Made by a program: the position numbers and the translations under genes
NCBI GenBank assembly: GCA_963823915.1
Contig: CAWGNJ010000002.1
Location: forward strand, 79,192-143,191
Direction: 5' to 3'
DNA length: 64,000 nucleotides
Source: an uncultured Actinomycetota bacterium
GTDB lineage: Bacteria; Actinomycetota; Acidimicrobiia; Spongiisociales; UBA4744
The notes under the pieces: generated by a model
What the model saw: the letters and a program-made list of their open reading frames with translations, nothing else
What the model was told of the DNA's origin: nothing
Databases searched by the model: none
Part shown: positions 4,491 through 17,200 of the stretch, in pieces
Numbering within the stretch: position 1 is the first letter of the stretch
Layout of the letters: each line of letters begins with the position of its first letter

Positions 4491-5486
4491 ATGACTCTGC
4501 TTCTCGATCACCTCAGCGATCCGGCCCCGGTAGCTATTCGAGTGCTCGCGTCACCCGTCTTTGAAGCTTTGGTTGCCCACTGGGCAGTTGTGGCCGAAGT
4601 CGATGACCTCGACTCCTTCCTGGAAAAGGACCGCATAGAGCGAATAGTCACTCGCTCCGCCCTATCCCAGGAGGAAACCACCTGGATGGCCCAGCAGCAT
4701 GGCACTGCGTGGACCTTCCTTATCCCCCACGTCGACAACTCCGGCGCCTCAACGATGGGCGAGTTCGTTGACTACCTCGAAGGTATCGACCCCGGACTCC
4801 TGGGACGAGAGTACGAGGCTCAGTCCGAGTGTGCCGGCCAGTGCGAACACGGCGAACGGCTCGGTATCGAGGACCCGATCGAGTTTCGCGATCGGGTCCT
4901 CGAGGTGCTCCGCAAGATCGACCGCGGGGCAGGAACCACGCTCGACAAATACACAGCCACCCTCGGTCACGAGGTACAGCTGACCAAGTTCCTGAAACGG
5001 CGCATGCCTCTGGACCGCCTGATCGAAACAGTCACCAACGGCATCGCTTACACGACCGAAGCAGGAGTCGAAGAGGTGGTATTGGTCCCGAGCGTCACGA
5101 TTCGACCGTGGAACCTCATGTTCCGGTTCGGGGGCTCTCGATATTTCGTGTATCCGGCCTCGGACGAAGCCGTTCAGGCGGACGCGGATACGCCACCGTC
5201 CTGGATGATTCAACTCTTCAAAGCGATCGGCGACGACAAGCGTCTGCGAGTGTTGCGGCGCCTGGGAGAAGGCCCCCAGAGCTTGGTGGAACTCACCGAC
5301 TTTCTCGGTCTCGCCAAATCGACCACTCACCACCACCTTCGCTCCTTGCGGGCGGCCGGGCTGGTTCGCCAGGACGTGCGGGGAGAGAAGGAAGAAAGCC
5401 GATACGAACTCCGTCAGGACATGCTCCCCGAGGCCATGCGACTCGTGGGCCAATACCTGGCTCCGAACAGCAAGGATGAAACATGA
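4491..5486 (+). CDS. ArsR/SmtB-family transcriptional regulator with a long N-terminal domain
   Basis: C-terminal wHTH (DDKRLRVLRRLGEGPQSLVELTDFLGLAKSTTHHHLRSLRAAGLV). Start set at ATG 4491 (GGAAGG 6 nt upstream), inside the longer ORF 4317-5486. Confidence 0.75.
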   Translation: MTLLLDHLSDPAPVAIRVLASPVFEALVAHWAVVAEVDDLDSFLEKDRIERIVTRSALSQEETTWMAQQHGTAWTFLIPHVDNSGASTMGEFVDYLEGIDPGLLGREYEAQSECAGQCEHGERLGIEDPIEFRDRVLEVLRKIDRGAGTTLDKYTATLGHEVQLTKFLKRRMPLDRLIETVTNGIAYTTEAGVEEVVLVPSVTIRPWNLMFRFGGSRYFVYPASDEAVQADADTPPSWMIQLFKAIGDDKRLRVLRRLGEGPQSLVELTDFLGLAKSTTHHHLRSLRAAGLVRQDVRGEKEESRYELRQDMLPEAMRLVGQYLAPNSKDET

Positions 5487-5701
5487 ACCACTCCCTGAAC
5501 ACCCATTTTGCCCAAGCCCGCCAGCGCGAAATCGCGCGCTTGGTCTCCGGTCGCCGGATTGCCGACCAATGGCAGCCTGCTCCCCCGGGCCGCCTGGTCG
5601 ATCGCATGGGCAAGAGCCTGGTCCACTTAGGTGCCCGGCTCATCAGCGACCGCCACGCCGCCCAGCGCATCGAGAACGAGCTTCATTCAAAGGCCGCGTA
5701 G
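5483..5701 (+). CDS. small hypothetical protein
   Basis: 72-aa ORF whose ATG overlaps the ArsR stop (ATGA). Basic helical text. No family recognised. Confidence 0.35.
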   Translation: MNHSLNTHFAQARQREIARLVSGRRIADQWQPAPPGRLVDRMGKSLVHLGARLISDRHAAQRIENELHSKAA

Positions 5702-5746: not shown

Positions 5747-5781
5747 CTGACTGACGGCTGATGACTGACGACTGACGACTC
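5747..5781. repeat. 7-bp tandem-repeat block, 5 units (ctgactg acggctg atgactg acgactg acgactc)
   Basis: Read directly. Intergenic, after ORF 5483-5701. Confidence 0.9.
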
Positions 5782-5784
5782 TGT

Positions 5785-5801
5785 TTCTCACCTGATTCTG
5801 C
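5785..5801 (+). promoter_or_regulatory. TTCTCA-N5-TTCTGC direct repeat (weak copy of the GATTCTCAT box)
   Basis: 11-bp phasing. Proximal end lies 73 nt before ATG 5875. Confidence 0.35.
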
Positions 5802-5874
5802 GATGCCCTTCATGGGCGGCTTAGGTCGCTGAACGACAGTTGCTCCAGTAACGGAAATCGAAAGGAGCACTCAC

Positions 5875-6498
5875 ATGCGCAAAGCCATCGCAGCCATTGC
5901 GACTGCGGCGATCGTTCTCGGCGGATTCTCCGTCGCCCTGGTCGTCCAGTCGCCGGACGTGGCCTCCGCTCAGGAGGTCGAGACGGAGGACACCCGCACA
6001 ACCGTTCCAGAAAGCGTCGAAGACATCCTGGCCGATCTGGTCGAGGACGGCGTGATCACCGAGGGGCAATCCACCCAGATCTCCGAAGCCCTGCGGCAAC
6101 GAGTCGGGCCTCTTCGGGAACACCGCGGCGGGTTCGCTCGTGGAGCCCAACTGGAGACGATCGCAGGGGTGATCGACATCGAGGTTGAAGACCTCGCCGC
6201 AGCTCTTCGAGACGGACAGACGATTGCCGAGGTAGCCGAGGCCAACGGATCTTCGGCCCAGGCCGTGATCGACACCCTCGTCGCAGAGATGAACACCAAT
6301 CTCGATCAAGCGATTGAGGACGGAAAGCTGACCACCGAGAAAGCTGACGAGATCAGGACCGACGCACCTGAGCGGATCCGGTCGATGGTCAACGGAGAGT
6401 TCGAAGGCCGCAAGGGTTTCGACGGACATCGGCGCATGGGCCCCGGACCGGGACTCAGTTTCGATGACGCACCTAACGCCGCGGAGACCAGCGCCTAG
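5875..6498 (+). CDS. secreted helical-repeat protein with (I/L)(T/S)xxQ motifs (paralog 1)
   Basis: Signal peptide ending ASA-QE, AGGAG 7 nt before the ATG, and motifs VITEGQSTQI and KLTTEKADEI. Clear paralog of 7235-8287 (shared AQAVIDTLVAE / TQAVIDALVAE, ..MVNGE). Confidence 0.7.
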   Translation: MRKAIAAIATAAIVLGGFSVALVVQSPDVASAQEVETEDTRTTVPESVEDILADLVEDGVITEGQSTQISEALRQRVGPLREHRGGFARGAQLETIAGVIDIEVEDLAAALRDGQTIAEVAEANGSSAQAVIDTLVAEMNTNLDQAIEDGKLTTEKADEIRTDAPERIRSMVNGEFEGRKGFDGHRRMGPGPGLSFDDAPNAAETSA

Positions 6499-6517
6499 CC
6501 CAAGCGGAGACCATCTT

Positions 6518-6551
6518 CCCTTCCCCCTCCCGCCGGCGGGAGGGGGAAGGG
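6518..6551 (+). terminator. 17-bp perfect palindrome after CDS 5875-6498 (also a G/C-tract hairpin family member)
   Basis: cccttccccctcccgcc|ggcgggagggggaaggg. No U-tract. Confidence 0.6.
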
Positions 6552-6634
6552 GGAGGGTGGGAAGATAGTTGTCAGTAGTGAATCATCGCTTGTCAGTTCC
6601 GCCTTCCCGGCGTTGCCGCCTTCGGCAGCTCCGC

Positions 6635-6664
6635 GTCTCTCCCGCCAGCGAGAGAGACCTTTTT
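6635..6664 (+). terminator. intrinsic terminator-like hairpin plus T5, 17 nt before the DUF1801 start codon
   Basis: gtctctc-N10-gagagac followed by cttttt. Confidence 0.55.
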
Positions 6665-6680
6665 GTTAGTCTCTCGAGTC

Positions 6681-7136
6681 ATGCAATCTGAAGCCACCAC
6701 CGTCGACCAGTACCTCGCCGAACTCCCGGACGACCGGCGAGCCGCCATCGAAGAAGTGCGAGAGGTCATCCTCGCCAATTTGCCCGAGGGTTACCAGGAG
6801 TCCATGAACTGGGGCATGATCTCCTACGAGATCCCGCTCGAGACCTACCCGGATACCTACAACAAGAAGCCGTTGGGATATGCCGCCTTGGCGTCCCAGA
6901 AGAACCATATGGCGGTCTACCTCTCGACGATATATTCGTCCGAAGAGTCCGCGACTGCGTTTGAGCAGGAGTATCGGGCGACCGGCAAGCGGTATGACGT
7001 CGGCAAGTCCTGCGTGCGGTTTCGCAAGATGGATGACCTGCCTCTAGACCTCATCGGTCGGACGATTGCGGCGACGCCACCCAAGGCCTTTGTCGCCATG
7101 TATGAAGAGGCTCGGGCTTCCCGACGGCGCGACTAG
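6681..7136 (+). CDS. DUF1801 (YdhG-like) domain protein
   Basis: TVDQYLAELPDDRRAAIEEVREVILANLPEGYQESMNWGMISYE is typical of DUF1801. ATG 6681 preferred over TTG 6663. Confidence 0.7.
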   Translation: MQSEATTVDQYLAELPDDRRAAIEEVREVILANLPEGYQESMNWGMISYEIPLETYPDTYNKKPLGYAALASQKNHMAVYLSTIYSSEESATAFEQEYRATGKRYDVGKSCVRFRKMDDLPLDLIGRTIAATPPKAFVAMYEEARASRRRD

Positions 7137-7152
7137 CAATCAACCGGGCCCA

Positions 7153-7172
7153 GATTCTCATGTTGTTTTCAT
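7153..7172 (+). promoter_or_regulatory. GATTCTCAT-gttg-TTTTCAT box upstream of secreted paralog 2
   Basis: 17 of 20 bases identical to 14162-14181. Proximal end lies 62 nt before ATG 7235. Confidence 0.55.
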
Positions 7173-7234
7173 CCTCTTCTTAGGTGGCCGCCATATCGTA
7201 TTTGTGAAGGTCAGATTCTCTGGAGGTAAGACCC

Positions 7235-8287
7235 ATGCGCAAAGCGATGACCGCCCTGGCAGTTGTTGCCCTGGTGGCCGGAGTGGCCCTGGTAGCCGTC
7301 TCCTTGAGCCAGTCACCGTCCGCGCTTGCTCAGGAAACTGAACGAGAAGTCTTCTTCGAGCCGCTCGACGACGTACTCAACGATCTGGTCGACGACCAGG
7401 TGATAACCGAAGACCAGCGCGAGAAGATCGCTACTGCCTTTGAGGAACGGATCGTCCGATTCGGTAAGGAACATCGCGAAACGCCCCACCTGGAAACCGT
7501 TGCCGACACGCTCGACATGGCTGTTGACGAACTCGTTCAGCAGATGCGAGACGGGGCAACCATTGCCGACATCGCCGGAGACCAGACCCAGGCAGTGATC
7601 GACGCCCTGGTGGCGGAGCAGACCACCCGCCTCGAAGAAGCGGTCTCCCAAGAGCGCATTAGCGAGGAGCAGGCCGACGAGATCCGGTCCGCCATGGTCA
7701 AAAAGGTCGAAGCGATGGTCAACGGTGAGCAGTGGATGACGACCCATCCCTTCGACATCGACCGATTCCACGGTCCACGGGGCCATGGCTTCTTTGGTGG
7801 ACCACGCGGTTTCGATTTCTTCGACAAGATGCCCAAGTTCGGCCGGTTTGGGTTCGGAGGCGGCTTCGGTCTCGATCCGATCGCTGAGGCGCTCGGGTTG
7901 GAAACTGATGAACTCATCGACCGCCTTTCCGACGGATCATCACTGGCCGACATCGCTGAGGAACTGGGTGTCGAAATCGAGGAGATCGTCAATGCAGCGC
8001 TGGCCGACCTCGACGAGAAGCTGCAAGACCTGATCGCCGACGAACGGTTGACCCAAGAACATGCCGACGGAATCCGCGCCGGTCTGGCGGAAGCCATCGA
8101 ATCGATGATCAACGGCGAGATGCCGGGTTTCGACGGATTTCACTTCGAGTTCAAATTCGACGGTGAAGCCCCCCACTTCGGGGATTTCCCGTTCCACAAG
8201 TTCTTTGGGGACCCCGATGGGGATTTCCCGTTCCACAAGTTCTTTGGGGACCCCGATGATGTCGACGGGACCGGCACCGCGGCCTAA
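7235..8287 (+). CDS. secreted helical-repeat protein with (I/L)(T/S)xxQ motifs (paralog 2, duplicated module, F/G-rich linker)
   Basis: Signal peptide ending ALA-QE, GGAGG before the ATG. Two copies of the module (VITEDQREKI, RISEEQADEI, RLTQEHADGI). Linker FHGPRGHGFFGGPRGFDFF..FGRFGFGGGFG. C-terminal GDFPFHKFFGDPD x2. Confidence 0.75.
   Translation: MRKAMTALAVVALVAGVALVAVSLSQSPSALAQETEREVFFEPLDDVLNDLVDDQVITEDQREKIATAFEERIVRFGKEHRETPHLETVADTLDMAVDELVQQMRDGATIADIAGDQTQAVIDALVAEQTTRLEEAVSQERISEEQADEIRSAMVKKVEAMVNGEQWMTTHPFDIDRFHGPRGHGFFGGPRGFDFFDKMPKFGRFGFGGGFGLDPIAEALGLETDELIDRLSDGSSLADIAEELGVEIEEIVNAALADLDEKLQDLIADERLTQEHADGIRAGLAEAIESMINGEMPGFDGFHFEFKFDGEAPHFGDFPFHKFFGDPDGDFPFHKFFGDPDDVDGTGTAA
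8180..8257 (+). repeat. perfect 39-bp tandem duplication inside CDS 7235-8287
   Basis: ggggatttcccgttccacaagttctttggggaccccgat x2, encoding GDFPFHKFFGDPD x2. Confidence 0.95.
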
Positions 8288-8295
8288 GCGGTTGT

Positions 8296-8456
8296 GAGTT
8301 CGAAGTTCGAAGCAGGTAGTTGCTTCTTTGCGGCTCGCGACTTCTCACCTGAGACCTGAAACTTGAAACCTGGAACCTGCAGGCTTGATGCTTGATCCCT
8401 CTGTTCTCGTAGCTCGCAGCTCGTAGCTCGTGACCTGCAACCCGAAACCCGTCGAG
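8296..8456. repeat. mosaic of 7-bp repeat blocks, 23 heptads
   Basis: gagttcg aagttcg / tcacctg agacctg aaacttg aaacctg gaacctg / caggctt gatgctt / cgtagct cgcagct cgtagct cgtgacc / tgcaacc cgaaacc. Confidence 0.9.
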
Positions 8457-10455: not shown

Positions 10456-11919
10456 CTACCCCTCGCCCAGCACAACGTCGACCGTCTCCACTGCGCCATC
10501 CCGATCGACGCTCAACTGCACGGTGTTGCCCACATGCGAACGACGCAGGAGGACGATCAGGTCCTGCATGATCTCGACCTCTTCGCCCTCGAAAGAGACG
10601 ATGAGATCACCGGCCAGCAGACCGGCTGCAGCCGCGCCGCCCACCGGATCGACTGATCCGATTTCAACCCCGGCAGGAACCTGGGCGCCATCGGCGGCCG
10701 TGTCGAAGCTCGTTCCGCCGGTGATCCCCAGGAATGCAGTTCCGGCCCGACCGTTCGCAATCAACTCCTCAACAACTCGTTCGACGATCTCGACGGGCGT
10801 GGCAAAACCGATCCCTTCTACGCCTATCTCCGATACCCCGACGGCGGTCGTGATCCCGATCAATCGACCCGTCTCGTCGACCAGCGCTCCTCCACTAGAT
10901 CCTTGAGTAATCGGAGCGTCAGTCTGCAACATTCCATAGAGGGGGTCGCTGCCGCCGGTTTGCACCAACCGGTCGAAGGCGGAAAGCACGCCCACGGTTA
11001 GCGACGGGCCTCCGTCAAGTCCAAGCGGGTTCCCAACCGCCACCGCGGGGTCTCCCACGGACAGGTCGTCGGACGATCCCAATTCGATCGGGACTAGGTT
11101 GTCGGCATCGATCTTGAGGACCGCTAGATCAGTAACCGGATCGGTACCTACCAGGGAGGCTTCGTAGACCCGCCCATCGGCGAACACCACCCGGTAGGCC
11201 GGACTGCCGGAAGCGACATGATCGTTGGTGATGATGTGGCCTTCCGTGTCAAACACGACACCTGATCCGGATCCACGCCGGCTGAAGCCGGTGGGGCCTT
11301 CCTGTCCGACCTGCACGCTGACGGTGGAAGGGATCACGACTTCGCCCACCAGAACGGCATCGACATTGGCTTCGCGCAGTTGAAGCGTTGCTGATCCGGT
11401 CGACGGAGGGGTAGCGGTCTCAGCGACCTGGTCGACCACTGTCGTGGTGGTAGTGGTAACCGGATCTTCGGAGAAGTCGAGGGCACCGACCCCGGCCACT
11501 GCGGCCAGCGCCACCACGGCCCCCAAGAATCCAGACACCATGGGGATCAAAACCCGGCCCCGCGGCCGGTCGGCCGGTTTTGAAGTGTCGAGGGATCCTG
11601 TCACTCCCCCCACAATGGGGGCGGGGGGCGAAACGGGTCCGGCCGGCCACTCCACCGTCGGCGGAAGGGCCTGCCGTCCAGGAAGATCGAAGCGGGCTGG
11701 GTCAAGGCGATCCCGAGGGGGCGAATCGCTCCATGCGGGACGCATCGGCTCAAAGCGTCCGGAATCGGGTTCTTCGACCGTCGACTCATTGTCCCGGACG
11801 TTCGTATCCCGTCCGGCGGCATCGTGGTCGGCGTCGGGAGGCGTGGTCGCCTCTCCGTGAATGAGCGATGACGGCTGGTCATCGTCAGACCGTGGATCCT
11901 GGTTGGGGTACATATTCAT
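10456..11919 (-). CDS. HtrA/PepD-like S1C serine protease with PDZ domain
   Basis: HIITNDHV, DLAVLKI and TQGSSGGALVDE catalytic text followed by a PDZ domain. Pro-rich N-terminus plus one TM. Start set at ATG 11919 (MNMYPNQ, GGAG upstream). Confidence 0.85.
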   Translation of the reverse strand: MNMYPNQDPRSDDDQPSSLIHGEATTPPDADHDAAGRDTNVRDNESTVEEPDSGRFEPMRPAWSDSPPRDRLDPARFDLPGRQALPPTVEWPAGPVSPPAPIVGGVTGSLDTSKPADRPRGRVLIPMVSGFLGAVVALAAVAGVGALDFSEDPVTTTTTTVVDQVAETATPPSTGSATLQLREANVDAVLVGEVVIPSTVSVQVGQEGPTGFSRRGSGSGVVFDTEGHIITNDHVASGSPAYRVVFADGRVYEASLVGTDPVTDLAVLKIDADNLVPIELGSSDDLSVGDPAVAVGNPLGLDGGPSLTVGVLSAFDRLVQTGGSDPLYGMLQTDAPITQGSSGGALVDETGRLIGITTAVGVSEIGVEGIGFATPVEIVERVVEELIANGRAGTAFLGITGGTSFDTAADGAQVPAGVEIGSVDPVGGAAAAGLLAGDLIVSFEGEEVEIMQDLIVLLRRSHVGNTVQLSVDRDGAVETVDVVLGEG

Positions 11920-12013
11920 CTCCGTCTGCAACGTCTTCTCGTAGAAATTATTCGAATCCGATGTGAGTACCGGATGAACCGAAGCTAAGAAGCTGGTGAG
12001 AACTCTCTGTCGA

Positions 12014-13363
12014 TCACACCGTGGCGGGGATCTGGAATCCCACCCGGGCGCCACCGCCGGGTGTCTCGTCGGCCCATACCCGACCGCCGTGGAGGTCGAT
12101 CACCTGTTTGACGATCGCCAGGCCGAGGCCCGATCCAGGCATCGACCGGGCCGTCGCGGAACGGTAGAAACGATCGAACACGTATGAACGATCTTCCAGG
12201 CCAATGCCGGGGCCGTGATCGATCACTTCCACTGATCCACCCCGAACCGAAACCTCGATGGGGACATCGGGTGGACTCCACTTATGGGCGTTGTCGACCA
12301 GGTTGATTACCGCCCGCTCGAGCATCCCCGGCCGGCCTTCCACGGTTCCCCCGTCCCCTGTCACCACTACGGTCCGGCCCGTTCGCCGGCGGGCCCGCTC
12401 GGCCACCTGTTCGACAAGTTCGGCCAGATCGACTTGGGACACTGGCTCCTCGGCGATCCGGGCGTCGGTGGCCAGTTCAACCAGTTCCGACACCAACTCG
12501 GTCAGCTCCTCCAGTTCAAAGGTCACGTCGGCCAGCAGTTCCTGTTTCTCGGCACCTTCCATGTCGTCCGACTTGGCCAGTACCTCGATGTTCGTACGAA
12601 GCGAGGTGAGCGGGGTGCGCAACTCATGGCTGGCGTCGGCTACAAGTTGCTGCTGCTGTTGGCGGGAAGCACCCAGCGCTTTCAGCATGGTGTTGAAGCT
12701 GGAAGCCAGCCGCCCGATCTCATCGTTCCGATCGACGGCGATGGGAGCATCGAAATCCTGGGTAGTGGCCACATGTTCGGCAGTGGCGGTCAACTCACCG
12801 ACCGGCTTCAGCGCCCGGCCGGCGACCAACCAACCCATGAGGGCGGCGAGGAGAACACCCAAGCCGCCAATGCCAAACAGACGCAATCGGAGTCCATTGA
12901 CGATGGCATCGGTTTCGCTCATGTCGCGAGCGATCTGGATCGCGTAGCCGTCTCCCCAGGGAGCGGTGATCATCCGGTAGTGGGTCTCCTCCACGTACAC
13001 ATTGCGCGGTTCGACGTAGAGGCGCTCACCGACGACCTGTAGGTCGGTTTCCGAGATCGGCAGTGCCGGGCCGCCGCGCAAGAACGCGACCACCTCTCCC
13101 TCTTCGTTGAATGCCTGGAAGGCTGAGTCCGGTCCGAAGACGTCAAAGATCCCGAATCCACCCATCCCGAACTCACGCGAGGCAGGGAAGCGGCCTCCGC
13201 CCTCGGCGAGTGCTGTGAGAGCGGAAGCTCGCTGAACCAGGAACTGATCGATTTCGCCTCTTGCTTCGCGAGTGGCCGAGACGTAAGCCGCCCCGGCCAC
13301 CGCCGCTACCGCCATGGCCACCGCCAGGGCTACAAAAAGAGAGAGCCGGGCGCGCAGGGTCAC
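12014..13363 (-). CDS. sensor histidine kinase (MprB-like)
   Basis: Two TM helices, HAMP, H-box [35 protein letters not shown]. 4-nt overlap with the regulator upstream. Confidence 0.9.
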
Positions 13364-14052
13364 GATTCTCTCAGCGCGTAACCGACGCCGCGCACCGTAT
13401 GGATCAGGCGAGGTTCGTCCTCGGCCTCGGTCTTGCGGCGCAGGTATCCGATATAGACGTCCAGCGAATTTGAAGAGGTTCCGAAATCGTATCCCCAGAT
13501 TCGCTCGTAGATGACTTCCCGGGTGAGCACGATGCCGGAATTGAGCAACAGCAATTCGAGCAGATCGAACTCTGTTTTGGTCAGCTCTATCAATCGACCG
13601 GCGCGTTCCACCCGGCGAGTCTCCGGGTCGAGGGTGAGATCGGCAAACGTCATGGGACCGCCCAGATCTTCGGGAGCCGTTCGCCGCAAGAGAGCACGGA
13701 GGCGGGCCAGCAGCTCTTCGAGAGCAAACGGTTTGACGAGATAGTCGTCGGCTCCGGCGTCCAATCCGGCGACTCGATCGGAGATGTCGTGCTTGGCGGT
13801 GAGCATCAGGATCGGTAGGTCATCCCCCTTGGCGCGGATCCGCCTGCACACCGACAACCCGTCAACGTAGGGCATCATGATGTCCAGAATCAGGGCGTCG
13901 GGCCGGTCGTCCTTGATGGCCTCCAGTGCTTCTGCACCGTCCACGGCCAAGCTGATCTCGTAGCCCTCGAAACGGAGAGCCCGTTGCAACGACTGTCGCA
14001 CACTCCGATCATCCTCGGCGATCAGCACCCTGGCGCCGTTCGTTTCTGTCAT
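13360..14052 (-). CDS. OmpR/PhoB-family response regulator (MprA-like)
   Basis: REC domain ([18 protein letters not shown]) plus winged helix ([20 protein letters not shown]). Confidence 0.9.
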
Positions 14053-14109: not shown

Positions 14110-14138
14110 CTGAGAGCTAGATGAGAATCGGGTGAGAA
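14110..14138 (-). promoter_or_regulatory. three phased hexamers TTCTCA-ccc-GATTCTCAT-ctag-CTCTCAG upstream of the MprA-like regulator
   Basis: On the plus strand, TGAGAG, TGAGAA and TGAGAA start at 14111, 14122 and 14133 (11-bp spacing). The array ends 57 nt before the start codon at 14052. Confidence 0.55.
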
Positions 14139-14161: not shown

Positions 14162-14181
14162 GATTCTCATATGTTTTTCAT
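14162..14181 (+). promoter_or_regulatory. GATTCTCAT-atgt-TTTTCAT box upstream of the lipoprotein/HlyD-like/MacB-like operon
   Basis: Proximal end lies 65 nt before ATG 14247. Forms a 10-bp inverted repeat with 14121-14130. Confidence 0.55.
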
Positions 14182-14246
14182 GTGACTATCAGAATCCCCT
14201 TAGCGCCGGATACGAGAGTGAAAGAGTTCTCGAAAGGAATCCCTGA

Positions 14247-14870
14247 ATGAAACGAAGGCTCATCCTCCTGCTGACAGTCCTGGCCCTGGTGGCCGCGGCC
14301 TGCTCGAGCAACGACACCGGCGGTGAAGTCGCCACGCTCGAAGGATCTGTTACCACTCTGGCGGAGGTGGTGGACAACCCAACCGACGATGAGGTGGACA
14401 CCGAACAGGCGATGCTCAATTTCACTCAGTGCCTCCGTGACGAGGGCCTAGAAATCCCTGACCCGGAAATGGATGCGGATGGGAATCTCAACTTCCGCCA
14501 GCTCGCTGATGGAGCGGAAGATGTCGACCGCGAAGCCCTCCGAGCTGGATTTGAGGCTTGCCAATCTGAGCTGGAAGGCATCACTCTGCGGGGCGGAGGT
14601 ATTGACCGGACGGCGATCCAGGACACCCTCATCGAGTATGCCGCCTGCATGCGAGACAACGGCTACGACATGGAAGATCCCGACCTTTCGGACTTCGGAC
14701 CCGGGGCCGGCGATGGTGAAGGTCAACCCGGCGGGGGTGGCGGGCCATTCGGCGACATCGACCCTGAGGATCCGGCGTTCGTAGCCGCCAACGAGGTTTG
14801 CCAGGGGATCTTCGTCAGTGCGGTCCCCCGCTTCCTCGGCGGTGAAGGCCAAGGCTCGGGAGGCGAATGA
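14247..14870 (+). CDS. lipoprotein, function unknown
   Basis: Lipobox LVAAAC-S, acidic mature part with paired Cys. 4-nt overlap with the next gene. Confidence 0.65.
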   Translation: MKRRLILLLTVLALVAAACSSNDTGGEVATLEGSVTTLAEVVDNPTDDEVDTEQAMLNFTQCLRDEGLEIPDPEMDADGNLNFRQLADGAEDVDREALRAGFEACQSELEGITLRGGGIDRTAIQDTLIEYAACMRDNGYDMEDPDLSDFGPGAGDGEGQPGGGGGPFGDIDPEDPAFVAANEVCQGIFVSAVPRFLGGEGQGSGGE

Positions 14871-16453
14871 TGAGAACTGTTCCGAGCGAGGAGGACGCCC
14901 CGGTCCCGGCGGAGGACCGGGAGTCAGAGGAGGCAGTTTCGGTGGATGAACCGAAGAAACGAAGCAGCCGCGGATGGATAGTTGCGGTGATCGTTGCGGC
15001 TGCCCTGGCTGCGGCTGTGTGGTTCATAACCCAGAACGGGACAAACGAGACCGACTCTGCAGCCGCTATCCCGCTCAGTTTCTCTGAAGTGGTCATCCGC
15101 GATCTCGAGGAGATTGAGGAGTTGTCCGGCACGCTTGGTTTCGATGCCGGAGATCCGATTTCGTCACGGTTCGCGGGCACGCTGACTTCGTCGGTTGAGG
15201 CCGGCGATGTTGTCCACGAAGGCGACGCTCTCTTCGCGATCGACAATCAGCCGATTGTGCTTCTCTACGGAAGTGACCCGATTTATCGGAACCTGGCCAT
15301 CGGCGAGGACCAGGTCCAGGTCATGGGACGCTTGGCGGGGCCCATCACCGAGATCGTCGAACCGGGCACGATCATCGAACAAGGCGATGTGCTGTACCGG
15401 GCCGACGGTGAGCCGGTCGCGGTGTTGTACGGCGACACCCTCGCCTACCGCACCCTGCGGGACGCATCCACCAACCTGACCGGTGCCGACGTCGAGCAAC
15501 TCGAAACGGCATTGGTGGCCCTCGGCTACGACCCGAACGAAACCCTCACCGTGGATGATGAGTTCACCTACGCAACCGGGCAGGTGGTCGAGGATTGGCA
15601 ACGTGACATCGGCGCCAACGACGACGGCGTCCTCAATTTGGGCGAAGTCGTGTTCATCCCCGGACCGGCCCTTGTAGTCGACGCCGCCCAATCCGGCGAT
15701 ACGGCCGGTCCCAACGCCCCCGTCTTGATCCTCCTGACCGGCGATCCGATGACCGGCACCGATGTCTCACAACTCGAGAATTCTCTGTCGACGCAAGGAT
15801 TCGACCCCGGAACGGTTGACGGAGTATTCACCGTGGAGACTCAGGAAGCCTTGATCGATTGGCAACAGTCGGTCGGCATGGAACCCGACGGCGTGGTCGA
15901 CGTTGGGGAGGTGATCTTCCTTCCCGATTCGATACGCATCGCGGCCGCCAATGTGACTGTTGGCTCCTCAGTGAATCCTGGTGCTGCGGTACTGGCAACA
16001 TCCTCGAACCAGAGCATCGTCGCCGTAGCCCTCGCCGCCCGCGACCAGGGTCTCCTGGCCGAAGGCGATCAGGTCACCGTGGTGCTTCCGAACGATGTGG
16101 AAACACCTGCCACGGTCACCTTTGTGGCGGCCCTGGCAACCGTTTCCGGCGCCGGTCAAGAACAGCAGGCGACTTTCGAAGTCCTCATTGAGCTCGATGA
16201 TGACTCCGAAGCCGCCGGATTCGACGAAGCCCCCGTTGATGTCCTGGTCATCACCGATCAACGCCTGGGCGCATTGGCGGTGCCGGTTAGCTCCTTGCTG
16301 GCACTCGCCGAGGGCGGGTACGCGGTAGAAGTGGACCGGGGCAACGGGCAAACGGCCCTGGTGGCGGTGGACCCGGGCATGTACGCCGACGGGTATGTAG
16401 AGATCGAGGCGGAAGGCCTCCAGCCGGGCGACCGGGTGGTGATGGCCCGATGA
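14867..16453 (+). CDS. membrane-anchored HlyD-like adaptor with two peptidoglycan-binding (PG_binding_1-like) repeats
   Basis: One N-terminal TM. Repeats LTGADVEQLETALVALGYDP..WQRDIGANDDGVLNLGEVVF and MTGTDVSQLENSLSTQGFDPG..WQQSVGMEPDGVVDVGEVIF. Followed by a MacB-type ABC pair. Confidence 0.7.
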   Translation: MMRTVPSEEDAPVPAEDRESEEAVSVDEPKKRSSRGWIVAVIVAAALAAAVWFITQNGTNETDSAAAIPLSFSEVVIRDLEEIEELSGTLGFDAGDPISSRFAGTLTSSVEAGDVVHEGDALFAIDNQPIVLLYGSDPIYRNLAIGEDQVQVMGRLAGPITEIVEPGTIIEQGDVLYRADGEPVAVLYGDTLAYRTLRDASTNLTGADVEQLETALVALGYDPNETLTVDDEFTYATGQVVEDWQRDIGANDDGVLNLGEVVFIPGPALVVDAAQSGDTAGPNAPVLILLTGDPMTGTDVSQLENSLSTQGFDPGTVDGVFTVETQEALIDWQQSVGMEPDGVVDVGEVIFLPDSIRIAAANVTVGSSVNPGAAVLATSSNQSIVAVALAARDQGLLAEGDQVTVVLPNDVETPATVTFVAALATVSGAGQEQQATFEVLIELDDDSEAAGFDEAPVDVLVITDQRLGALAVPVSSLLALAEGGYAVEVDRGNGQTALVAVDPGMYADGYVEIEAEGLQPGDRVVMAR

Positions 16454-17200
16454 ACCTTCGCCGACGCAACGGCGGGCGCGGTCCCGGCGGAGAGCGTCTG
16501 ATGATCGACCCGGGCGTCGTGTTGTCACTCCGGGGGGTCACCAAGACCTATCCGGGCACCCCGCCGGTGCGGGCGCTGCGAGGTGTAGATCTGAAAATCC
16601 GACTGGGAGAGCTGGCCGGCATCGTCGGGCCGTCCGGGTCCGGAAAGTCGACCTTGCTCCACATCATGGGCACTCTTGATCTGCCCACGCGCGGAGAGGT
16701 TCACCTGGCCGGGCATCAGGTCTCCGCCTTGAACGACAAAGAACTGTCAGCGCTCGGTCGCGCCACATCGGTTTTGTCTTCCAGCAGTTCCATCTCCTCA
16801 ACAGCCAGTCGGCCTTGGACAACGTGGCGGACGGCCTGCTCTACACCGGTACGCCGATCGCAGAGCGCCGGGAGCTCGCCGGCGCTGCCCTGCAACGGGT
16901 CGGGTCTGGGCCATCGGCTCGATCACTCGCCAACAAATTGTCCGGCGGCGAACGGCAGCGGGTGGCGGTCGCCCGGGCCATCGTCGGCCGGCCGGCGATG
17001 GTGCTGGCAGACGAACCAACCGGCAATCTCGACAGCAAGTCCTCGGACGGCATCGTCGAGCTGATCGAAGAACTCAACGCCGAAGGCATAACCATGCTGG
17101 TCATCACCCACAACCAGGAGATTGCCGAGCGATTCCCCCGGCAAGTTGGCGCTTCTCGACGGGACGATCGAATACGATCGCGCATCGGCGGCGGCTGTGA
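16450..17200 (+). CDS. ABC transporter ATP-binding protein (MacB/LolD type), frame-interrupted
   Basis: [12 protein letters not shown] in 16450-17064 and LSGGERQRVAVARA..LADEPTGNLD in 16815-17465. Breaks near 16760 and 17150. 3' end approximate. Confidence 0.8.

Follow-up and report, generated by a model that had tools for sequence, protein, structure and literature searches.

Exported helical-module proteins P1 and P2 as candidate members of an MprAB-like envelope-stress regulon in an uncultured Actinomycetota bacterium

The window analysed here is a stretch of 64,000 nucleotides from an uncultured Actinomycetota bacterium of the class Acidimicrobiia (GenBank assembly GCA_963823915.1, contig CAWGNJ010000002.1, positions 79,192 to 143,191 of the forward strand). 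It encodes two small proteins, P1 and P2, whose open reading frames (ORFs) lie where the original prediction, made from the sequence alone, had placed them: at 5875-6498 (207 amino acids) and 7235-8287 (350 amino acids), both on the forward strand. The same window carries genes for an OmpR/PhoB-family response regulator, a sensor histidine kinase and an HtrA-type protease. We tentatively regard P1 and P2 as envelope-stress-regulated extracytoplasmic accessory proteins in the regulon of this MprAB-like system, i.e. as analogues of CpxP and Spy that are not their homologues and are built on an unrelated fold.

Architecture, export and predicted structure of P1 and P2

P1 consists of a signal peptide (residues 1-32), a DUF2680-like hairpin (44-78), a basic linker, a core module (residues 87-178, nucleotides 6133-6408) and a Gly-rich tail ending in ...ETSA. 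P2 likewise begins with a signal peptide (1-32) and a hairpin (40-74), followed by module 1 (nucleotides 7472-7744), a disordered Gly/Phe-rich linker (residues 166-212), module 2 (nucleotides 7853-8128) and an aromatic and acidic tail ending in ...GTGTAA. The two proteins are paralogues, as had been proposed: BLASTP aligns them over 133 amino acids with 41% identity (E = 3e-24), and a second segment of P2 matches P1 with 34% identity (E = 3e-15). With tblastn, exactly three copies of the core module of about 85 amino acids are found in the window, and the N-terminal hairpin is recovered as common to both proteins (37 amino acids, E = 1e-6). The original prediction was right about the copy numbers, one in P1 and two in P2, and about the motifs VITEGQ, VITEDQ, RISEEQADEI, RLTQEHADGI and KLTTEKADEI, all of which occur in the translations, but not about the length of the shared unit, given as about 150 amino acids. 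Only the 85-residue module is duplicated in P2; the longer unit corresponds to the hairpin plus one module.

The Phe/Gly-rich linker that had been noticed in P2 is indeed present (26% Gly and 26% aromatic residues), and the FHKFFGDPD repeat of the tail is accounted for by a perfect 39-bp tandem duplication (8180-8258, forward strand, 100% identity) encoding GDFPFHKFFGDPD twice. As the duplication is perfect it is recent, and the tail differs among P2 orthologues. The extreme C-termini of P1 (nucleotides 6487-6495) and P2 (8276-8284) share a ...(D/E)T(S/A)A-COOH ending that is kept in 76 of 193 close homologues. The T-(S/A)-A ending, which is absent from the wider family, matches the S/T-x-hydrophobic pattern of class-I PDZ ligands, and on this pattern it could be a ligand of the PDZ domain of the co-regulated HtrA or of a tail-specific protease.

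Both N-termini read MRK, followed by a hydrophobic core of about 20 residues and then ASA-QE or ALA-QE, and carry neither a Cys lipobox nor a twin-Arg motif. The A-x-A-Q-E cleavage site shows no or almost no variation among 40 P1-type and 35 P2-type orthologues. The pattern rule and the conservation in orthologues agree with the earlier assignment of Sec-type signal peptides, and by the rule for Sec and signal peptidase I, together with this conservation, P1 and P2 are predicted to be Sec-exported to the extracytoplasmic space.

AlphaFold2 models of P1 and P2, built from the family alignments, have a predicted local distance difference test score above 90 in the helical modules and below 50 in the linkers. 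The P1 model has a hairpin (helices 48-57 and 63-76) and a five-helix module (87-100, 104-112, 117-123, 128-148 and 154-173), and the P2 model a hairpin and two five-helix modules. The predicted template modelling scores are low (0.44 for P1, 0.34 for P2), suggesting that the modules are independent beads. Each module has a net charge of -13 to -19, the disordered linkers, rich in Gly, His, Arg and Phe, are weakly basic and enriched in His, and the proteins as a whole carry -21 (P1) and -49 (P2), with mature isoelectric points of 4.27 and 4.21. As modelled, P1 and P2 are strongly acidic, all-alpha "beads-on-a-string" proteins with five-helix beads of about 85 amino acids.

Family relationships of the module

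Neither P1 nor P2 reaches the threshold of any Pfam or NCBIfam model, in keeping with the earlier failure to recognise a named family for them; no curated family models the module of about 85 amino acids. The nearest is DUF2680 (PF10925), which matches P1 at 14.8 bits (E = 0.031), below its gathering threshold of 25 bits, and does not match P2. It matches 23 of 40 P1 orthologues at E ≤ 0.01 (best 3.2e-6), and multi-copy relatives exceed the gathering score (P0194 with 51.6 bits, P0246 with 37.3 bits), so that the DUF2680-type families named in the original prediction were well chosen for the search. By profile score, the terminal helical hairpin of the module is DUF2680-like. The two share the hairpin pattern helix-G-x-(I/L)-(T/S)-x-E-(Q/E)-A-helix, and both are secretory: the Sec signal peptide of the DUF2680 prototype, Bacillus subtilis YckD, was functional in a signal-peptide library (PMC5142396), and those of P1 and P2 are of Sec type. 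They differ in that DUF2680 spans only some 35 residues of hairpin, as against an 85-residue module with a three-helix half resembling a helix-turn-helix (HTH), and in that P1 and P2 themselves stay below its threshold. In the literature DUF2680 is essentially unstudied and has no known function, and YckD appears only in lists.

A profile search with the three modules of the window retrieved 10,954 cluster representatives at E ≤ 1e-3, with 4,670 at E ≤ 1e-10. Homologues occur in Acidimicrobiia, Chloroflexota and Paenibacillus and mostly carry two to four modules in tandem, with up to nine in one protein. A secreted trypsin-family protease domain opens four of the 18 large module proteins scanned; in three of them it is complete (E = 1e-67 to 1e-73) and in one partial. 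No other catalytic partner of the modules recurs in that set, and the modules follow the catalytic domain. Two Chloroflexota fusions, P0194 and P0202, end in conserved hydrophobic C-termini (...VYLPVVLK and ...VYLPMVMK), perhaps a sorting or anchoring signal specific to the lineage. Searched against PDB sequences, the family profile gave nothing (best E = 0.056).

Some existing labels of family members were discarded. P1 orthologues labelled "polyhydroxyalkanoate synthesis regulator phasin" by JGI have no phasin match in Pfam or NCBIfam and are exported proteins, and Pfam finds no LysM in a Paenibacillus homologue that UniRef labels "LysM domain". The many sub-threshold HTH matches (HTH_29, HTH_40, Sigma70_r4 and others) come from the module's three short helices, for which DNA binding is implausible because the domain is exported and has a net charge of -13 to -19.

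The original prediction likened P1 and P2, as candidates, to the CpxP/Spy/ZraP (LTXXQ) family. Membership of this family is rejected on several grounds. Neither LTXXQ (PF07813) nor Metal_resist (PF13801) matches P1 or P2 even at E ≤ 1, and none of the 40 P1 orthologues matches at E ≤ 0.01, although the Escherichia coli controls CpxP, Spy and ZraP score 8e-22, 2e-23 and 5e-23 against these models. Profile comparison with hhalign against CpxP/Spy/ZraP, with a reference profile of three sequences only, gives probabilities of 0.5% for the P1 family and 0.7% for the P2 family, with an alignment confined to 17-20 residues around the (I/L)TxxQ motif. In Foldseek searches of the PDB with both models, the best E-values are 1.2 and 0.53, and no Spy, CpxP or ZraP chain is listed. 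Conservation of the motif Gln is limited to the N-terminal hairpin (at least 90% of P1 orthologues have Q65, and Q61 is invariant in those of P2), the one hairpin that keeps a (V/I)ITxxQ; the hairpins of the modules read (L/I)(T/S)xExAD, in which the fifth residue varies. In charge the proteins are the opposite of Spy, and the fold predicted for them is a module of five helices instead of a long bent hairpin cradle. What speaks for P1 and P2 as true but very divergent LTXXQ proteins is that single motif at a helix start, their secreted and helical nature, and the linkage to a two-component system, including a distant locus (L036) in which the module gene and the regulator gene diverge, as is the case for cpxP. 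Against the evidence just given, we consider such an origin exceedingly improbable. The broader part of the claim, that P1 and P2 are secreted helical proteins of a stress regulon, fares better and is supported by conserved promoter boxes and by the neighbourhood of a regulator-kinase pair, as described below.

Promoter boxes and gene neighbourhood

Three genes on the reverse strand form the presumed regulatory system. The regulator gene (13360-14052) encodes the OmpR/PhoB-family response regulator. The kinase gene (12014-13363) encodes a protein with two transmembrane segments, an extracytoplasmic loop of about 135 amino acids and HAMP, HisKA and HATPase domains. The htrA gene (10456-11919) encodes the HtrA/PepD-like serine protease, with a trypsin-like domain and a PDZ domain; translation probably starts at the ATG at 11919, and the ORF as listed, which extends to 12054, is too long. 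On the forward strand, divergent from the regulator gene, lies an operon (14247-17064) for an acidic Cys-containing lipoprotein (14247-14870), a peptidoglycan-binding HlyD-like adaptor (14867-16453) and an ATP-binding cassette (ABC) ATPase (16450-17064). The lipoprotein has an LVAAAC lipobox and no family match, and the adaptor carries two PG_binding_1 domains. The operon may be a MacAB-like envelope efflux module of the same regulon, and its lipoprotein could be a kinase accessory of the CseA/LpqB type.

The pattern TTCTCAYNNNNTTYTCAT has exactly three perfect matches in the 64 kb, all of them intergenic: one upstream of P2 (7155) and two in the divergent promoter region of the regulator (14121 and 14164). 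With up to two mismatches there are five matches, a count reached by 0 of 100 shuffles. The upstream box that had been proposed as common to P2 and the regulator gene is therefore real, and P1 also has a box, in degenerate form. The boxes are runs of three or four TTCTCAY half-sites at 11-bp spacing, the geometry expected of OmpR/PhoB-family regulators. The P2 box (7155-7183, forward strand) reads TTCTCAT gttg TTTTCAT cctc TTCTTAG, with half-sites that are invariant in nine genomes, and is followed 10-11 bp past its last half-site by a -10-like hexamer, TATCGT (7194-7199, forward strand), with a conserved CATATC block. Given the conservation of this element at that distance, the promoter geometry suggests that the P2 box overlaps the -35 position, which implies activation. 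The P1 box (5785-5824, forward strand) has four phased half-sites, TTCTCAC ctga TTCTGCG atgc CCTTCAT gggc GGCTTAG, of which TTCTCAC, ATTCTG, TCA and CTTA are invariant in nine genomes while the flanks are unconserved; it lies at -89/-90 in all P1 orthologues.

Further boxes precede the genes of the regulatory system. That of htrA (11959-12002, reverse strand; TTCTCAC cagc TTCTTAG cttc GGTTCAT ccgg TACTCAC) begins 12 bp past the kinase stop codon and has equivalents in five related loci (L001, L012, L016, L024 and L025). Upstream of the regulator gene lies TTCTCAC ccga TTCTCAT ctag CTCTCAG (14110-14138, reverse strand), from which autoregulation is predicted; the regulator's own promoter is boxed in all seven close-clade genomes that reach the regulator, and in the distant locus L038. 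The lipoprotein operon is preceded by TTCTCAT atgt TTTTCAT gtga CTATCAG (14164-14192, forward strand).

A strict scan for the box in the window and 43 related loci (723 kb) gave 38 matches, of which 35 immediately precede a module gene, the regulator gene, the lipoprotein gene or htrA. The box footprints are kept in eight further species, and in alignments of the nine genomes the half-sites do not vary, in contrast to the drifting spacers and flanks. Family members in unrelated genomic contexts (L003 and L004) have the box upstream as well.

The close clade comprises the window and eight species-representative metagenome-assembled genomes (MAGs). Where contigs reach, the gene order in this clade is PNPOx, P1, DUF1801, P2, EVE and, further on, HtrA, kinase, regulator and the divergent lipoprotein and peptidoglycan-binding adaptor. 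Among 28 distant loci of Acidimicrobiia, 12 have the module gene immediately beside a regulator-kinase pair that is related to the window's; the regulators there are up to 66% identical to that of the window. The module gene occurs in four arrangements, i.e. upstream and co-directional, downstream and co-directional, convergent, or divergent from the regulator gene. Most of the module genes beside a regulator-kinase pair have the P1 architecture (signal peptide, acidic spacer, an LVxDGT(I/L)TQxQAD hairpin, a Gly/His/Arg linker and one module); P1 is thus the conserved type and P2 a clade-specific derivative. In L021, L024 and L025 the regulator-kinase pair is followed by a boxed HtrA gene and then the module gene. 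The L024 clade also has a 708-amino-acid lipoprotein gene (5677-7803 of L024, reverse strand) between the kinase gene and the boxed HtrA gene.

Between P1 and P2, as had been noted, lies a DUF1801 gene (6663-7136, forward strand; Pfam 2e-15), which has neither a box nor a signal peptide; its position is kept in the close clade, and it is probably unrelated to the system. The ArsR-type gene that had been reported next to P1 is likewise present, as an ArsR/HTH_20-type gene with an N-terminal region of about 300 amino acids of unknown function, joined to a 72-amino-acid ORF by an overlapping stop/start ATGA (4491-5701, forward strand). The pair is found in the window genome and is absent from eight of eight related species, so that a role for ArsR in the P1/P2 system is not supported and the proposed link is rejected; the pair has the look of an insertion, specific to this lineage, that separates PNPOx from P1. 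Where this insertion ends on the right, directly upstream of the P1 box, is a heptamer tandem repeat (GACTGAC × 4.6, 5749-5780) that occurs in no orthologous upstream region. Past the P1 stop codon lies a perfect, GC-rich palindrome of 17+17 bp (6518-6551, forward strand; CCCTTCCCCCTCCCGCC/GGCGGGAGGGGGAAGGG) with overlapping G-rich repeats, which resembles a terminator except that it lacks a T-tract; P1 is therefore probably monocistronic. The spacer between P2 and the EVE-domain gene holds two 7-bp tandem repeats, AGTTCGA × 2.3 (8297-8312) and ACCTGAA × 4.7 (8347-8379).

Proposed role, alternatives and comparison with known systems

From comparative genomics, P1 and P2 would be part of the regulon governed by the nearby OmpR-family regulator and its kinase, whose genes have the order mprA-mprB-pepD. 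Under envelope stress the phosphorylated regulator would bind the tandem TTCTCAY half-sites, 11 bp apart, over the -35 position, and would activate P2, P1, htrA, its own operon and the operon for the lipoprotein, peptidoglycan-binding adaptor and ABC ATPase. Induced by stress and exported, P1 and P2 would then work as accessory factors of the pathway in the wall zone. Most likely they would hold damaged exported proteins or hand them to HtrA, and/or bind the extracytoplasmic loop of the kinase as a feedback "third component". A connection with proteolysis is also suggested by the fusion of modules to secreted trypsin-family proteases in four of the 18 large module proteins.

Several observations weigh against this proposal. 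The regulator and kinase pass no NCBIfam equivalog threshold, so that orthology to MprAB is not established: the top models for the regulator are RpaB, PhoB, heavy-metal, MtrA and CseB, all below cut-off, and the kinase matches best, also below cut-off, the subfamily of heavy-metal sensor kinases. Because MprA of Corynebacterium glutamicum represses some genes for secreted proteins, it is uncertain in which direction control would run. The extreme acidity of P1 and P2 contrasts with Spy's basic client-binding cradle, and the box of P1 is degenerate. A relaxed scan upstream of distant module genes speaks for the regulon, as 12 of 32 regions scored at least 13/21 as against 0.7% of random windows, but is indicative only, its P-value being optimistic because most of the null set was coding DNA and several of the loci are related to one another. 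Outside Acidimicrobiia, i.e. in Paenibacillus and Chloroflexota, no such link to a two-component system was seen, and all related loci come from uncultured MAGs.

Other functions have to be weighed against the same observations. The module array might be a passive scaffold of the envelope, a spacer, stalk, matrix or decoy that places proteases or wall proteins and has no chaperone or signalling activity. Tandem arrays of up to nine modules with flexible linkers, modules placed after the catalytic domain in the trypsin fusions, independent beads with low template modelling scores, and a P2 tail that evolves fast by tandem duplication would all suit such a role. The maintenance of a single-module P1 type beside the regulator-kinase pair is hard to square with a mere spacer, however, and the boxes are common to htrA and the regulator itself; we therefore think a purely structural role unlikely. 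We give somewhat less credence still to P1 and P2 as stress-induced secreted polyanions of the wall zone that, in the manner of ZraP, bind or buffer divalent cations, metals or cationic antimicrobials and do not act on proteins. Their net charges and His-enriched linkers would fit, as would the sub-threshold scores of kinase and regulator against heavy-metal models, the boxed HlyD/ABC efflux-type operon and the ArsR-type gene beside P1 in the window genome. That ArsR neighbour, however, is missing in eight of eight related species, no cluster of His, Cys or Met is seen in the kinase loop, P1 and P2 have no metal-binding motifs or Pfam matches, and the predicted co-regulation with HtrA and the protease fusions point instead to protein quality control.

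The regulatory half of the argument has its own alternative, in which the box belongs to another OmpR-family regulator, for instance of the PhoP type with its PHO-box-like 11-nucleotide repeats, and P1 and P2 answer a different signal. Several actinobacterial OmpR-family regulators do use 11-nucleotide direct repeats with a TCA core, and NCBIfam cannot tell the subfamily of the regulator. Yet the box stands in the regulator's own promoter across the close clade and in L038, it also stands on htrA directly downstream of the kinase, and module genes flank such a regulator in 12 distant loci, which makes this a very unlikely explanation. We retain, tentatively, the reading of P1 and P2 as accessory proteins of an MprAB-like envelope-stress regulon.

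A wider proposal, which we hold as possible but doubtful, is that the module stands for an extracytoplasmic domain family that is large and so far unrecognised (more than 10,000 clusters; Actinobacteria, Chloroflexota and Firmicutes), in which single-module P1-type proteins are the dedicated third component of MprAB-like systems in Acidimicrobiia. Such an acidic protein would sit on the kinase loop and/or hand damaged exported proteins to HtrA, being itself consumed. If true, monoderm bacteria would have evolved a CpxP-like circuit independently, with a new fold as its basis. The envelope-stress circuits of Gram-positive Actinobacteria have no known dedicated secreted equivalent of CpxP or Spy, a role ascribed to DnaK in Mycobacterium tuberculosis, and a conserved, secreted, regulator-linked family would be a concrete candidate for the missing component. 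It would also place an uncharacterised and very large domain family, the DUF2680-type hairpin included, in a functional context for the first time. With a predicted regulator box and five target promoters, the hypothesis can be tested directly.

In comparison with CpxP, Spy and ZraP, P1 and P2 are likewise small, exported and all-helical, with an (L/I)TxxQ-type motif at a helix start. The genes of the former are controlled by, and often lie beside, an envelope-stress two-component system, and are co-regulated with a DegP/HtrA protease; for P1 and P2 the first is predicted from boxes and neighbourhood and the second from boxes. The differences lie in the fold, a dimeric bent hairpin cradle there and, in the AlphaFold2 models, compact five-helix modules with disordered linkers here; in the isoelectric point, 9.45 for Spy and 4.2 for mature P1 and P2; in the modular, repeated architecture of P1 and P2; and in the host, a monoderm actinobacterium and not a member of the Proteobacteria.

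The MprAB-PepD systems of M. tuberculosis and C. glutamicum share with the window the order of regulator, kinase and HtrA-type PDZ protease, as seen from Pfam domains and coordinates. They also share a direct-repeat box in the regulator's own promoter, with autoregulation predicted here, and a separate regulator-dependent htrA promoter, which here is predicted from the conserved box. The module family, in contrast, has not been reported in any MprAB regulon. For M. tuberculosis, an MprA box of two direct repeats of about 8 bp, 3 nucleotides apart, serves here as a lead only. C. glutamicum MprA autoregulates and controls htrA together with secreted proteins whose function is unknown, and the reverse complement of its loose motif is KTTCTTAAMA (PMC12113857). 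In M. tuberculosis a chaperone keeps MprB off by way of its extracytoplasmic domain, an arrangement likened to CpxP-CpxA (PMC8561658). CpxP-CpxA, DnaK-MprB and BiP-IRE1 have in common a chaperone-like factor on a sensor domain that is titrated off by unfolded exported proteins (PMC8561658). For P1 and the kinase this analogy is purely inferential; the tight and yet rearranging linkage between P1-type genes and the kinase operon fits a partner of this kind.

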